This document shows, piece by piece, positions 21,888 through 36,818 of a stretch of DNA of 64,000 nucleotides. Position 1 is the first letter of the stretch. Each line of letters opens with the position of its first letter. This DNA is from Escherichia coli. GTDB lineage: Bacteria > Pseudomonadota > Gammaproteobacteria > Enterobacterales > Enterobacteriaceae. Location: NCBI RefSeq assembly GCF_022846255.1, contig NZ_AP025682.1. One strand, given 5' to 3'. The position numbers and the translations under genes were made by a program. The notes below the pieces were generated by a model. That model worked only from the letters and a program-made list of their open reading frames with translations. It had not been told where the DNA came from and made no database searches.

Positions 21888-22195
21888 AAGCTGCTCCCGG
21901 GCTTGCGAAAGCCCATGTCCATATTTTTGATGGAAGAAACAATAGGCAATCGCAGGCGGAGCAAACAGTGGATAAAAAGGCCATTTACTGGACTTTTGTA
22001 ATATCAATACAAAAATGCGATCCGCCTCATAACTTGCGATAATCCGGAAGTACGCCGCAAAACGGCGTCTTGTGAGACGCGTCGCAAATTGACGGTTACA
22101 TTACATTTGTCCAGCTTTTGGCAGATTTGTCACATGGCAGGCCGTTGCCGTGCGCTCTTATCCTGTAAACAGAAAACCGTACCGGGAGAAAGGCA

Positions 22196-28403: not shown

Positions 28404-30700
<2,297 letters not shown>

Positions 30701-30912
30701 TGTAGATCAAATTGATCGTAATTAAGACTTTTTGATTATGTCCGATTTAGGATAAATGCTTTATAAGAAAAGGTTTTAGCCTGGTACCCTTCAAGTAATG
30801 AAGGCGAAAACAAGGCTGATAACCTTATTTTCCCGCCCTCATTTCGAGGCAGCATTTTGTGCTCTGTTTAAAATTTGTGAACACTGTGTGATTTTCACAA
30901 AAGGCACACTAT

Positions 30913-31806
<894 letters not shown>

Positions 31807-32184: not shown

Positions 32185-33744
32185 TTATTTGATATCCTTC
32201 ACGCGCATACCGTTGAGCTGTTCATCCGTAATGGTGTTGCCCGCTTTGAAGTAATCAACCACCGCGTGATAAACGTAATAACCGCCCGTTGTGTTACGCG
32301 CTTTCCCTTCGGTAAAGGCGGTAAAACCATCTCCACCATCAGCAAGGAAACTCTGAGTAGCAATGTGATAAACCGTCGCATCTTCAATGGGTTTGCCATT
32401 CAGAGTCAGTGTGATTACCCGCTGACCAACCGGCTTGCTGCTGTCGTACTTCATTTCCAGGCCTTTCGATACCTGTAAAACGCCATTGCTTAAACTTGCG
32501 CCGTGTTCCATCAGACTGCGTAATTGTTTACCCGTGAGTTCCATCGTCACCAGTTCGTTGGGGAACGGGAACGTACTGATAACGCCGCCCATCGTGATCG
32601 CCCCTGCGGGGATCTCATTGCGGATACCACCAGAGTTTGTTAACGCCAGTTGGGTATTTTTACCCGCTGCTGCCAGTAAAGCGTCAGCCGCCAGGTTCCC
32701 GAGGGAAGCCGATTCACCATAGGCACGTTTTAATTCAACCGGCGATTGCGCCACCGTTTGTTGCACCACTTCATCAAGCTTTTTATTCCAGCCGTCGATC
32801 ACCTGTTTCGTTTGCGGATCGGGCTTCCACTCGTCAGCGTAAATGGTTTTAAGCTCGAAGTTTTTCACCGTAAAATTATGCGGCTTCTCTTTGTAGTCGA
32901 GAACCAGTTTGCCCACATCAATCCCGCCGCTGTCAGTGGAGAGGATGAGCGTATTGCCGACTTTAATCGGTTCCGGCGTACCCACATGTGCATGTCCGGT
33001 GATCAAAATATCCAGCCCTTTCACCTGACTTGCCGTCTGAATATCTTTATCCAACGCGCGACGCACATCTGTGCCTCCCATACTGGACTGGCGGGCCGGA
33101 ACACCTTCATGGATCAGGGCGACGGTCAAATCAACCTTGCCTTTAAGTTCATCGATATAACGTTGTAGCCATTTAATTTCATCACGCGCCTCAATACCCA
33201 CTCGCGTGGCAGCAGATACTGTGTCATTAAAGGCAAATACACCGTGCAAACCTATAACGCCTATTTTCACACCGTCTTTTTCGATGATGGTATAGGGCTT
33301 ATCCCAGAATGATTTACTGCTGTTCTGATAAAAAACATTGCCCTGCACAATCGGGAATTTTGCCTGACTCAACTGTAATAATGTGTTGTCCCAGCCGTGG
33401 TCAAATTCATGGTTGCCTATCGTGACGGCATCAAACGGCATAGTATTCATAATATCGATAATAGCCTTACCTTTGGTCAGGCTGCTGATATATGGCCCGG
33501 TAAAATAGTCGCCCGCATCAAAAAACCATGTCGCTTTATTTTTTGCTTTTTCTTGCTTAACCAGCGTAGTGATATTTGCCCAGCCGCCAATATCCCGTTT
33601 ACCGTTCGCAATCCACGGCACTTTATAAGGCTCTACATGTGCATGGAGGTCGTTAGTATAAATAATGGTGACATCTTTGGCGCAAGCCCAGAACGGCAAT
33701 GTTAATGCGATACCCGCAGCAAGTATTTTAATTTTCATAAACAA
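32185..33744 (-). CDS. Secreted bifunctional metallophosphatase/5'-nucleotidase (UshA/CpdB family), paralog A, 519 aa
   Basis: Signal peptide [22 protein letters not shown]; metallophosphatase motifs [26 protein letters not shown]; C-terminal 5'-nucleotidase-domain motifs NSGGIR, FPFPN, GGDGF; absent from metL-metF interval in my memory of K-12. Confidence 0.85.
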
Positions 33745-33797
33745 TCCCTTTCAGTGAGATAAAGGATTGCTACATTACGTTCTGAAAGACTTATTTA

Positions 33798-33813
33798 TGT
33801 GAGAGTAATCACA
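33798..33813. promoter_or_regulatory. CRP-type binding site (TGTGA-N6-TCACA) in divergent promoter between paralog A and the zinc-ribbon ORF
   Basis: Sequence TGTGAGAGTAATCACA read directly; perfect match to both CRP half-sites with 6-bp spacer. Confidence 0.5.
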
Positions 33814-33870
33814 TCCGCAGGGGATAGTTGCCGGACAAAATCAACGACCTTGTGAAATCGTTGGTGATAT

Positions 33871-34995
33871 ATGTCGACTCTGTTTACGATTAATGCCTGT
33901 AAAACGTTCGGTTGCCGAAATTTGGGATTGGCCTCATCGGAAGATTACAGTTGGCCAGACTATAAACTGGGTTATCCGGCACTGCACTGTCGGGCATGTG
34001 GAAGTTACCCGCCGTTGTTTGACGAACAGCAATTTCGTGACTGGTTGTCAGTTCACTTATCTACTTTTGCAACTGAGAAAGGTCATTTCTGCCCGGTATG
34101 TTATGGCACAGACATGATTTGTTATGGTCACAATCCACAGGGTTCGCAACGCATTCAATGCCGTAACTGCAAAAAAGTCTGGACGCCTAAAAAATATCAG
34201 AAAGAAATTACGCATCCCCAGGCCATTGAAACCGTTCAACTGTTCATACCCTTTCAAGGGGCCAGTGCAGTACAAAAACTGTATGTTTTAGTCAGTCTTG
34301 ACGCCACTCGTGGCAACATTCTTCATCTCTCCACGAATTATACGCAACATCAGACAGGAGACAGTCTGCGGTACAGTTACAAGGGCAACACAGAACCAAC
34401 TATGCACCATCGCGATATCGTGCAGAAGGTAGATATGCGTGAAGCGCAATTCTTGCGCCGGAGCCAGTTCGATGAAATTCAGTATGGCAGTGCTGTACTC
34501 AAGCGCAACGGTAAGGGAGCCATACTACGCCCGGTTATCACGGCACACGGGCATTTCAGAATACTGAAAATCCGCTATCCAGATGTCAAAACGCATATTA
34601 TTTCACACGAATGTTTTCTAAGAGGCGCAATTATTACAGCCTGGGCAGATCAGTTCCGCCAACAACAAGGTGAACTTTGGTTCGTAGAAGAAGAAATCAG
34701 TGACAGTAACGCTGATACGCCCTGGCATTTTAAGGGAACGACATACCATGGTTGGTGGCAAAATCAGTGGCAGCGCTGGGAGCAGGGGAATAACTGCAAG
34801 ATGGTCTGCCTACTCACGGGAGCCTGCTTAGAAAGGGGCGCAAATGTTTCTCTGGCAACCAGTCGTTGTTTTATCACATGGCTGACAGACCAACACGACT
34901 TTACCCAAAGCGCGTTATTATCCGCAGGTCGCGTAACACAAATGCTGACCTCACTGGCGTTAAAATACAATGAATCGCTCACTCCATCTTGTTAG
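33871..34995 (+). CDS. Hypothetical cytoplasmic protein with N-terminal tandem CxxC zinc ribbons (InsA-like), 374 aa; function unknown
   Basis: ATG start at 33871; four CxxC pairs in first ~100 aa (CKTFGC, CRACG, CPVCYG...QRIQCRNCKKVW); no signal peptide; long uninterrupted ORF in AT-rich island. Confidence 0.6.
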   Translation: MSTLFTINACKTFGCRNLGLASSEDYSWPDYKLGYPALHCRACGSYPPLFDEQQFRDWLSVHLSTFATEKGHFCPVCYGTDMICYGHNPQGSQRIQCRNCKKVWTPKKYQKEITHPQAIETVQLFIPFQGASAVQKLYVLVSLDATRGNILHLSTNYTQHQTGDSLRYSYKGNTEPTMHHRDIVQKVDMREAQFLRRSQFDEIQYGSAVLKRNGKGAILRPVITAHGHFRILKIRYPDVKTHIISHECFLRGAIITAWADQFRQQQGELWFVEEEISDSNADTPWHFKGTTYHGWWQNQWQRWEQGNNCKMVCLLTGACLERGANVSLATSRCFITWLTDQHDFTQSALLSAGRVTQMLTSLALKYNESLTPSC

Positions 34996-35224
34996 TCAAT
35001 ACACTCGACAAACGACCATAAATTAAGAGAGAGCACTACCTTTCATTTAATTAAATATATAAATGTATGACCGTGAAATATAATCATGGTCAATGTTTAA
35101 TTAATAACATTATTTGTTACTAAGATCACACAATACTTTTCTGAACTATGCTTACATAAAATAAGACACGATGTGTCTTTTATTTAAATAATTCAACAAA
35201 TGTAACACACCCTATCCAGGAGGG

Positions 35225-36778
35225 ATGATGAAAACTGTATTTACAACATTATCAGTCATATTCGGCGTGATATTTTCTCACAGTGTTCTAGCTCAGGACG
35301 TTACTATTTATTATACGAATGACATTCACGCACATGTCAATCCGGCAAAAATCATCGCTGTTGATAAGAACAGACTTATAGGTGGTATGGCTAATATTGC
35401 AGGCATCGTTAATGAAGCGAAGAAAAAAAGCAAAGATGTGTTTTTCTTTGATGCAGGCGACTATTTTACCGGGCCGTATATCAGCACCCTGACCAAAGGT
35501 GAAGCTATTATTGATATCATGAACACTATGCCCTTTGATGCGGTGTCTGTTGGTAATCACGAGTTCGATCACGGTGTGCCCAATATGGTGTCTCAGTTAT
35601 CAAAAGCAAAATTTCCCATTCTGCTGGGAAATATCTACTACACCGATACGAATAAACCAGTTTGGGATCATCCGTGGACCATTATCGAAAAAGATGGTTT
35701 AAAGATTGGTGTGATTGGATTGCATGGCGCATTCGCTTTCTATGATACAGTCGCGGCAAAAGCACGTGAAGGCGTAGAAGCCAGAGACGAAATTAAATAT
35801 TTAAATAAAGCACTTGCAGAATTAAAAGGTAAAGTCGACATTACCGTTTTGCTAATTCACGAAGGTGTCCCGGCGCGTCAATCAAGCTTTGGTAGTAAAG
35901 ATGTGGAGCGGCTACTACAGGCAGATATTGAGACAGCTAAAAAAGTGAATGGTGTTGATGTCTTAATTACCGGTCACGCACATGTCGGAACACCGCAACC
36001 AATAAAAGTTAATAACACATTAATTGTATCTACCGATGCATACGGCACCAACATCGGAAAACTTGTGCTTGATTACAATCCGAAAACGAAGAAAATTGAT
36101 AGTTATAATGGTGAGTTAATCACCATCTTTGCAGATCAATTTAAACCTGACACCATCGTTCAAAATACTATTGATAAATGGAGTGCAAAGCTTAACAAAA
36201 TAACACAGGAAGTTGTCGGCCATTCTCCCGTAGTTTTAACACGTGAGTATGGTAGTTCCTCTTCTACCGGCAACCTTATTCTTGATGCAATGATGGAAAA
36301 AACACCTGATGCCGTTGCCGGATTTCAAAATAGCGGTGGGATGCGAGCTGATTTTCCTAAAGGCGATATCACACTGGGAGATGTTATTAGCACATTCCCC
36401 TTTAATAATGACCTCATCGAGATGGATTTGACGGGCCGCGATCTCAAATCATTGATGACGCATGCAACCAATCTAACTAACGGTGTGTTACAAGTTTCTA
36501 AAAGTGTTGCGGTTGTCTATGACAGCAAAAAACCACTCAACCAACGGTTAATCTCTTTCACCATTAACGGCAAACCCGTGGAAGATAATCAAACATATCG
36601 TATTGCCACGCACTCCTTTTGTGCCAGTGGTGGTGACGGTTTTGAAGCATTTTTGAATGGAAAAAATGTGAAAACGATACCGGGAACAACCTCGGCGGAA
36701 TCTATCATCGATTATTTCAAAAATCACAAGCCTATCACCCCAGACTTAACTAAACGAGTCATGGACGTCGCCAAATAA
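35225..36778 (+). CDS. Secreted bifunctional metallophosphatase/5'-nucleotidase (UshA/CpdB family), paralog B, 517 aa
   Basis: Strong SD (AGGAGGG) then MMKTVFTTLSVIFGVIFSHSVLAQDVTIYYTNDIHAHV...; same motif set as paralog A (GDYFTG, GNHEFD, GHAHVG, NSGGMR, GGDGF). Confidence 0.85.
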   Translation: MMKTVFTTLSVIFGVIFSHSVLAQDVTIYYTNDIHAHVNPAKIIAVDKNRLIGGMANIAGIVNEAKKKSKDVFFFDAGDYFTGPYISTLTKGEAIIDIMNTMPFDAVSVGNHEFDHGVPNMVSQLSKAKFPILLGNIYYTDTNKPVWDHPWTIIEKDGLKIGVIGLHGAFAFYDTVAAKAREGVEARDEIKYLNKALAELKGKVDITVLLIHEGVPARQSSFGSKDVERLLQADIETAKKVNGVDVLITGHAHVGTPQPIKVNNTLIVSTDAYGTNIGKLVLDYNPKTKKIDSYNGELITIFADQFKPDTIVQNTIDKWSAKLNKITQEVVGHSPVVLTREYGSSSSTGNLILDAMMEKTPDAVAGFQNSGGMRADFPKGDITLGDVISTFPFNNDLIEMDLTGRDLKSLMTHATNLTNGVLQVSKSVAVVYDSKKPLNQRLISFTINGKPVEDNQTYRIATHSFCASGGDGFEAFLNGKNVKTIPGTTSAESIIDYFKNHKPITPDLTKRVMDVAK

Positions 36779-36818
36779 AATCTCATTTATCAGTCAATTT
36801 ATTTAACAAGGAATGTGA

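Follow-up and report, generated by a model that had tools for sequence, protein, structure and literature searches.

We found that a palindrome in a 64,000-nucleotide segment of an Escherichia coli chromosome (contig NZ_AP025682.1; the whole of this stretch is called the window below) is probably a binding site for the cyclic AMP (cAMP) receptor protein, CRP, and that this cAMP-CRP site would be common to two class II CRP-dependent promoters arranged back to back. The palindrome, TGTGAGAGTAATCACA, occupies positions 33798-33813 and lies between two divergent genes. The one on the minus strand (32185-33738; c4898 in strain CFT073) codes for a UshA-like metallophosphatase/5'-nucleotidase of 517 amino acids with a signal peptide, here nucleotidase A; the one on the plus strand (33871-34995; CFT073 c4897, annotated 'cytoplasmic protein') is an open reading frame (ORF) for a zinc-ribbon protein of 374 amino acids. 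Both assignments follow the CFT073 RefSeq annotation. CRP control of the locus is well supported by the comparison of homologous loci laid out below.

Conservation and spacing of the palindrome

The sequence-only reading of this DNA had placed TGTGA-N6-TCACA at 33798..33813, in the divergent promoter region. Exact matching bore out the motif, which agrees with both CRP half-sites at every position and has the 6-bp spacer, and the location held as well, whereas the boundary that had been given to the region, 33745, moved to 33739: with the start that RefSeq gives the CFT073 orthologue (ATG at 33738), the intergenic region spans 33739-33870, or 132 bp. The corresponding 22-mer, TTATGTGAGAGTAATCACATCC (33795-33816, core 33798-33813), is identified by its exact half-sites, by its matrix score and by alignment. 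It is nearly central in the region, its centre (33805.5) being 67.5 bp from the ATG of nucleotidase A and 65.5 bp from that of the zinc-ribbon ORF. The exact motif occurs once in the 64-kb window against 0.06 expected from 100 dinucleotide-preserving shuffles, six of which contained at least one match. With one mismatch allowed there were three matches against 1.54 expected, so that the exact match alone stands out; one of these three, at 35115-35130, lies upstream of a second nucleotidase gene, nucleotidase B. Scored with a home-made CRP weight matrix, built from 20 classical sites and not from a curated source, the 22-mer reached 13.2 and ranked fifth among about 64,000 positions, these known sites themselves scoring 3.7-21.9. 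As an internal control, the CRP site known from the cytR promoter, AAATTCAATATTCATCACACTT (47152-47173, within 47133-47173), scored 14.5 and ranked third in the window. Motif statistics and matrix score alone are suggestive, and the decisive evidence is comparative.

Alignment of 21 intergenic regions from 13 genera of Enterobacteriaceae (alignment A3) revealed that the right half-site, TCACA (33809-33813), is invariant in 21 of 21 sequences (2.00 bits) and that the left half-site, TGTGA (33798-33802), has a mean of 1.63 bits, while the 6-bp spacer (33803-33808) has a mean of 0.80 bits and the stretch to the right of the site (33814-33835), with 0.69 bits, is the least conserved part of the region. 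Variation in the left half-site was confined to T6 and A8 (TGCGA, TGTGC, CGTGC, TGGGG), and G5, G7 and their mirror positions in the other half did not vary in any of the 21 sequences. G5, G7 and the mirror positions are the bases most strongly contacted by CRP. Among eight E. coli alleles the half-sites were unchanged, the most divergent allele differing in the spacer only (GAGTAA to GAATAC). None of the aligned sequences had an insertion or deletion between 33772 and 33841, though 33814-33835 varies freely, and the distance from the site centre to the nucleotidase start was 66.5-67.5 bp throughout. Half-sites that are kept, a spacer that drifts and a spacing that stays fixed are what a dimeric factor, bound in constant helical phase, classically leaves behind.

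In class II CRP promoters CRP replaces the -35 element and the -10 hexamer starts 29.5 bp from the centre of the site. In the window, -10-like hexamers begin 28.5 bp from the centre on the nucleotidase side and 30.5 bp from it on the zinc-ribbon side. The putative -10 hexamer of the zinc-ribbon promoter, CAAAAT (33836-33841, plus strand), has a mean of 1.81 bits with A2, A5 and T6 invariant; that of the nucleotidase A promoter, TAATGT (33772-33777, minus strand; TAAnnT), is invariant at positions 1, 2, 3 and 6 in the 21 sequences. Transcription would then start at about 33847-33848 for the zinc-ribbon gene, with CRP at about -41.5/-42.5, and at about 33764-33765 for nucleotidase A, with CRP at about -40.5/-41.5. 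These predicted class II starts would give leaders of 24-26 nt that hold the ribosome-binding sequences. A class I position of CRP (-61.5) was rejected, since the leaders would be only 4-6 nt long, too short for ribosome-binding sites.

The same arrangement was found at genes for distant relatives of the zinc-ribbon protein. The gene is divergent from a 5'-nucleotidase gene in a metagenomic sequence (L050; 41% identity to the window protein), in Citrobacter sp. Awk 4 (L040; 38%) and in Photobacterium (L051; 37%), and in Vibrio scophthalmi (L056; 33%) it lies immediately 3' of a 5'-nucleotidase gene on the same strand. Elsewhere it is divergent from nupC and a nucleoside phosphorylase gene (L047, metagenome; 33%), from nupC-deoC-deoA-deoB, followed by TatD and a Bmp-type ATP-binding cassette system (L054, Agarivorans; 34%), from genes for a porin, an AphA-type phosphatase and a class II phosphodiesterase (L052, Salmonella Give; 29%), or from deoD-tal-deoB, followed by adenosine deaminase (L043, Motilimonas; 25%). 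Five of the eight lineages have a CRP-like palindrome with a matrix score of 11-18.9 at a distance of 64.5-92.5 bp upstream of the gene of the zinc-ribbon family or of the operon that it forms with a nucleotidase gene; the CRP-like site of Motilimonas lies 132.5 bp upstream, and that of Photobacterium is present only as a degenerate remnant. A -10-like hexamer with A2 and T6 begins exactly 29.5 bp from the centre in L050, L040, L047 and L056, and L050 and L040 repeat the whole layout, with the nucleotidase start 64.5-66.5 bp and the zinc-ribbon start 66.5-68.5 bp from the centre. Over a divergence of the protein down to 25% identity the motif remains GTGA-N6-TCAC, which argues for a universal factor, CRP, as the binder and not for a fast-evolving neighbour.

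Two blocks beside the site are conserved as well. The first, CGTTCTGAAAG (33778-33788), lies between the CRP site and the nucleotidase -10 hexamer and has a mean of 1.84 bits, more than the 0.69 bits of its mirror-image stretch (33814-33835); its TCTG is found at the same offset in the paralogous loci L050 and L040, and the block may be the site of a second factor. The other, ATCAACGACC ... AAATCGTTGGTG (33840-33866), forms an inverted repeat, CAACGA-N10-TCGTTG, around the predicted zinc-ribbon transcription start and ribosome-binding site. Within alignment A3 AAATCGTTGGT is invariant in all 21 sequences, and a GTTG(G/A) motif before the start codon was found again in distant zinc-ribbon relatives; an operator or an element of the 5' untranslated region would fit this block. 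Conserved beyond the need of a core promoter, the two blocks point to an additional factor, specific to the locus, that would control access and might be the zinc-ribbon protein. Neither block is known to match an operator consensus, and judged by eye CGTTCTGAAAG did not fit the consensus sequences for Cra, DeoR, PurR or lac operators. An Rfam scan of 33500-35400 with E values up to 1, which included the flanking blocks, matched no RNA family. Two candidate RNA structures were rejected: a terminator-like hairpin on the minus strand (33842-33863), of which one was found against 0.8 expected in shuffles, and a hairpin CUUUCAG/CUGAAAG that would hide the ribosome-binding site of the nucleotidase gene. 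The 5' arm of the latter lies upstream of the predicted transcription start, its 3' arm needs no explanation beyond the ribosome-binding site, and the pair is without informative covariation.

Probable CRP control and its alternatives

With two class II promoters on one site, a single CRP dimer at 33805.5 would serve both the zinc-ribbon and the nucleotidase A promoter from about -41.5 for each; neither promoter has a -35 element, and the CRP site would stand in for it. In the absence of glucose, with cAMP at a high level, CRP would recruit RNA polymerase in one direction or the opposite one. The dephosphorylation of nucleotides in the periplasm would come under catabolite control, as is the case for the classical deo, udp, cdd, nupC/G and tsx genes. 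The genes for nucleotidases B and C and for a Tsx paralogue might be reached by read-through from the zinc-ribbon promoter, and in the long form of the locus, which has these genes, nucleoside entry through the outer membrane would likewise be under catabolite control. Scavenging of nucleosides and nucleotides is a classical CRP-controlled function (PMC3454398), and the use of a single CRP site by divergent promoters is established, 11 cases being listed for K-12 (PMC3105977). The sequence-only reading had tentatively connected the locus to the nucleoside regulon through cAMP-CRP and possibly CytR. The cAMP-CRP part of this proposal is supported by the conserved half-sites, their position, the class II spacing and the nucleoside/nucleotide neighbours, whereas the CytR part found no support at this site, as described below.

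A number of points weigh against CRP acting here at two class II promoters. Either polymerase would have to use the DNA beyond CRP, so that two class II promoters on one dimer would be used alternately; simultaneous use of one class II site by two RNA polymerases is impossible, and there must be mutual exclusion. The -10 candidates are weak, matching TATAAT at 3 of 6 and 4 of 6 positions, and the weight matrix was uncurated. A simple sigma-70 consensus scan found no promoter in the intergenic region and so lent no support, a result that is expected because CRP stands in for the -35 element; the sole sigma-70 match was rejected as a promoter, lying as it does inside the nucleotidase coding sequence. 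Literature searches by locus tag found no CRP, transcription-start, expression or binding data for the locus, the only matches being a paper on TosR (c4894) and an unrelated small RNA prediction. Another point comes from chromatin immunoprecipitation sequencing (ChIP-seq) of CRP in enteroaggregative E. coli (EAEC) 042, for which Table S2 lists 322 chromosomal peaks in lysogeny broth (LB) at mid-log phase, with scores down to 4 (PMC12363807). EAEC 042 has a short form of the locus with the identical 16-mer, and the list has no peak at 4603xxx-4608xxx, nor does the 16-mer appear in the supplement (PMC12363807). Nearby peaks at glpF (score 3873) and cytR (score 13, weak) are present in the same list, and the coordinates agree with the record. 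This evidence is a peak list from one growth condition; in EAEC 042 grown in LB to mid-log phase the site was either not detectably occupied or was missed. Occlusion by a specific factor, silencing or low accessibility are possible reasons, and gating by the zinc-ribbon protein at the conserved blocks would explain why there was no CRP ChIP signal in LB.

Could the palindrome be the operator of a locus-specific protein that merely resembles a CRP site? The most plausible such protein would be the zinc-ribbon protein with its transposase fold, by autoregulation like that of IS1 InsA; its N-terminus resembles the DNA-binding zinc ribbon of InsA, and the EAEC 042 16-mer without a CRP ChIP-seq peak is in line with this. 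The distance from the site to the zinc-ribbon gene is fixed in distant lineages despite a changing neighbour and an intergenic length of 130-987 bp, but a class II promoter would be expected to fix that distance anyway. In the left half, position 6 is always G (TGTGAG), and its mirror position is variable; the lac CRP site also reads TGTGAG...CTCAC, which counts against a locus-specific operator. TGTGAG is found in the symmetric lac operator as well, but there with a 4-bp gap and not a 6-bp one. Given that the conserved positions are exactly those contacted by CRP, with the 6-bp spacer of CRP, that the motif is steady across all this divergence of the zinc-ribbon protein, and that the spacing to the -10-like hexamers fits an activator replacing a -35 element and not a repressor, we consider a locus-specific operator unlikely. 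That CRP binds here and represses or is silent, with the promoters driven by something else, appears very unlikely. The weakness of the -10 candidates speaks for it, as do the many CRP targets found by ChIP that have no transcriptional effect (PMC12363807), and overexpression of TosR raises c4894 in CFT073, which hints at other control, e.g. relief of silencing (PMC5956150). A silent site, however, would not hold an invariant spacing to two hexamers in 13 genera, nor would it recur in paralogous loci, and a centre near -41.5 without a -35 element is an activating geometry. A chance palindrome without function is scarcely credible: the exact match did arise in some shuffled windows, and the palindrome was picked after it had been seen, but the combination of kept half-sites and drifting spacer in 21 sequences and the recurrence in lineages 25-41% identical refute this explanation for practical purposes.

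Joint control by CRP and CytR, in which CytR beside CRP blocks activation until cytidine is present, is in our estimate quite unlikely at this promoter. At known CytR targets an imperfect TGCAA-N2-3-TTGCA or an octamer repeat lies between two CRP sites about 50 bp apart, cytR alone using one CRP site, and a form with direct repeats spaced by 1 bp is known for the cytR and cdd operators (PMC3454398). In 33739-33870 there was no second CRP site, the next best matrix score being 2.5, so that the region has one site where every known CytR target except cytR has two. The three intergenic regions that the sequence-only reading had in view for a scan with both factors yielded a CRP site in 33739-33870 and a CRP-like one in 34996-35227; CytR pentamer repeats failed to appear, no TGCAA-N2-4-TTGCA being found in any of the three with up to two mismatches, and the intergenic region before the Tsx paralogue (38439-38514) had no CRP site (best matrix score 5.3). 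Octamer matches (GTTGCATT, two mismatches) in 33739-33870 were at chance level, three against 1.3 expected. One octamer-like sequence, GTTGCCGG (33828-33835), matches at 5 of 8 positions with its centre 26 bp from the CRP centre, and Kosakonia and Phytobacter have (C/T)GCAA-TAG-TTGCA at its place, so that CytR input is possible in some genera; the stretch that holds it is, however, the least conserved of the region. The flanking genes concern nucleosides, which favours CytR, and cytR does lie where the sequence-only reading had it, at about 47280-48305, 13.4 kb downstream of the palindrome; as evidence this position loses its force, since cytR is at its ordinary chromosomal place beside priA and ftsN. 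With a single CRP site and no recognizable CytR operator, the claim of CytR control at this site was not sustained.

A direct octamer repeat like that of CytR operators, AATTCAAC-A-AATGTAAC (35190-35206), is located upstream of nucleotidase B, 19 bp from the ATG at 35225 and 22 bp from the RefSeq start at 35228, and has the 1-bp spacer of the cytR and cdd operators. It is the only adjacent octamer pair with at most one mismatch in the window, against 0.38 expected per 64 kb, which is not significant window-wide, or 0.037 at the composition of the AT-rich module of nucleotidases B and C and Tsx; it lies 75 bp from the nearest CRP-like site, and we regard it as a weak lead. The CRP-like site in question, ATTTGTTACTAAGATCACACAA (35112-35133), is a candidate with one core mismatch, a score of 14.8 and rank 2 in the window. 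It was kept in the one divergent E. coli variant compared, is flanked by terminator-like hairpins (35068-35092 and 35163-35179) and has no convincing class I or class II spacing. Enterobacter-type loci have a different hairpin followed by the same TTATTTAAA before nucleotidase B. Elsewhere in the window the top matrix match, TTTTGTGCTCTGTTTAAAATTT (30855-30876, score 14.9), lies between katG and the end of metF and has one good half-site, and the divergent ptsA(ptsP)-frwC intergenic region has CRP-like sites at 22013-22034 (score 14.4) and 22068-22089 (score 11.1); the EAEC 042 ChIP-seq table has no peak at this intergenic region.

The metF-metL locus and its zinc-ribbon protein

In the window, block 32185-39375 is inserted between metF (30913-31803) and metL (39593-42025), both on the minus strand as is katG (28404-30623). 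Nucleotidase A matches 5'-nucleotidase families of NCBIfam, in all cases under the equivalog cut-offs. Beyond the zinc-ribbon ORF an AT-rich accessory module (35228-39375, plus strand, GC content 37-46%) consists of nucleotidase B (35228-36778, with an alternative ATG at 35225), nucleotidase C (36819-38438) and the Tsx paralogue (38515-39375; CFT073 c4894), all as annotated in CFT073 RefSeq. The Tsx paralogue was among the top induced genes upon overexpression of TosR in CFT073, with a log2 fold change of 3.3 (PMC5956150); this induction would fit a lifting of silencing from the AT-rich module. The metL..metF island of extraintestinal pathogenic E. coli (ExPEC) and avian pathogenic strains has been named 'GR 31' in a 2026 genome paper, which described three UshA-like ORFs and a Tsx-like ORF and suggested a system for nucleoside processing and uptake (PMC12928451). 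GR 31 is the same island as the block in the window; the paper has no regulatory analysis and includes neither the zinc-ribbon ORF nor the CRP site (PMC12928451).

Of 5426 complete E. coli genomes, 658 have the long five-gene form of the locus (at least 80% of a 7.8-kb query), CFT073, Nissle 1917 and LF82 among them, and 1841 have the divergent intergenic region with the core pair, at 91.5-100% identity. Many carriers, e.g. ST131 and EAEC 042, have a short form with nucleotidase A and the zinc-ribbon gene only, in which the latter runs at its 3' end 37 bp into the end of metL. In short-form E. coli (L002-L006, L045) the zinc-ribbon protein is 77-78% identical to that of the window and diverges more and more as the 3' end is approached, and identity to the window is 95-99% for the upstream intergenic region and for nucleotidase A, a pattern that suggests a recombination breakpoint inside the zinc-ribbon gene. 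A survey of one genome per species found 37 loci. The divergent pair is present in Citrobacter, Klebsiella, Enterobacter, Kosakonia, Phytobacter, Pluralibacter, Silvania, Superficieibacter, Kluyvera, Pseudocitrobacter, Rahnella, Salmonella arizonae and other Escherichia species, and it lies between metF and metL in nine lineages (Citrobacter, Klebsiella, Kosakonia, Phytobacter, Kluyvera, Superficieibacter, Pseudocitrobacter, Salmonella arizonae and E. whittamii). Between genera the identity of nucleotidase A is 87-99%, much like that of MetF and MetL. Given this synteny and this identity, the core pair is best read as ancestral at this place, and it looks to have been lost from K-12-like strains. 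The 'acquired island' of the sequence-only reading thus shrinks to the AT-rich module of nucleotidases B and C and Tsx, which alone is accessory. In L016, L017, L018, L034, L036 and L039 nucleotidase B, the Tsx paralogue and nucleotidase C follow nucleotidase A on the same strand; this arrangement occurs away from metF-metL, in Enterobacter, in Citrobacter sp. wls619 and in second copies in some Escherichia genomes. Judged by gene order, the accessory genes are downstream of one or the other divergent promoter in both arrangements.

The zinc-ribbon ORF gave a weak match to the IS1/IS1595-type zinc-ribbon family NF050000 (23.2 bits, cut-off 28) and a weak one to the InsA zinc ribbon of Pfam (E = 0.007). 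Its eight conserved cysteines form two CxxC...CxxC sets. The AlphaFold2 model of the protein was confident (predicted local distance difference test score, pLDDT, 93.5; predicted template modelling score, pTM, 0.93), and a Foldseek search with the model returned RNase-H-like matches, which were weak. The protein has two putative IS1/InsA-like zinc ribbons and an RNase-H-like fold of the DDE transposase/integrase kind. C97, C100, R197 and H228 are invariant throughout the family; no acidic residue is, E247 being conserved in at least 90%. This is a small family (123 representatives among 1.84 billion proteins) whose members are annotated as nothing more than hypothetical or cytoplasmic proteins. 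The gene is mostly single-copy and syntenic in many genera, with second copies in few genomes, e.g. L009/L017. Compared with transposases of the IS1 InsA and IS1595 types and with domesticated transposase regulators, the window gene is distinct in being essentially single-copy and in lying beside nucleoside/nucleotide genes. Signs of mobility were absent, with one syntenic metF-metL copy in nine genera and always a nucleoside/nucleotide context (terminal repeats were not searched for). The ORF thus resembles a domesticated transposase. Gene context, in which it is often divergent from its neighbour, suggests a role as a regulator; nucleic-acid processing may be an alternative.

We tentatively propose, as a possibility well short of an even chance, that these proteins are an undescribed domesticated IS1-like family of Enterobacterales, Vibrionales and Alteromonadales, a dedicated regulator or nucleic-acid-processing partner of nucleoside/nucleotide scavenging loci, each under a class II CRP promoter, which would gate CRP or RNA polymerase from the conserved blocks. 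In Enterobacteriaceae, on this proposal, the same CRP site would also drive the divergent periplasmic nucleotidase. Relatives down to 25% identity adjoin deo, nupC, add, aphA-type and 5'-nucleotidase genes, which makes a testable case for a transposase-derived player in nucleoside metabolism. This link of a transposase-fold family to nucleoside scavenging is the part most worth following and may outweigh the CRP site in interest.

Comparison with known CRP-controlled systems

The CRP site would be a further case of the well-known class II CRP site between divergent promoters. If our interpretation is correct, it gives a regulatory handle on an uncharacterized metF-metL gene pair that is present in about a third of complete E. 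coli genomes, among them CFT073, Nissle 1917, LF82, ST131 and EAEC 042, and in many Klebsiella, Citrobacter and Enterobacter. Catabolite control would extend to the breakdown of nucleotides in the periplasm and, in ExPEC-type strains, to an additional Tsx channel, and the region would show, in compact and natural form, how two class II promoters can share one CRP dimer. The service of divergent promoters by one CRP site is said to have been the subject of a systematic model study by El-Robh and Busby in 2002, as cited in PMC3105977.

The CytR/CRP promoters deoP2, cddP, udpP, tsxP2, nupG and cytRP have the nucleoside/nucleotide theme in common with the window and a CRP site at about -41.5, the position predicted in the window, whose intergenic region is without tandem CRP sites or a recognizable CytR operator; membership in this group is not supported. 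The class II promoters galP1 and the melR-derived CC(-41.5) are like the predicted window promoters in having a consensus-type site that replaces the -35 element, a spacing of about 29.5 bp and short leaders. Compared with galP1 and CC(-41.5), the window has weaker -10 elements and starts that are predicted, and the same site apparently serves a second class II promoter on the other strand. Like the window, araBAD-araC, xylAB-xylFGHR and glpEGR-glpD have one CRP site in a short region between divergent genes. In the window, where the regulation of both sides is inferred, the site is unlike those in being almost exactly central in 132 bp, and both promoters would be class II, with overlapping upstream contacts.

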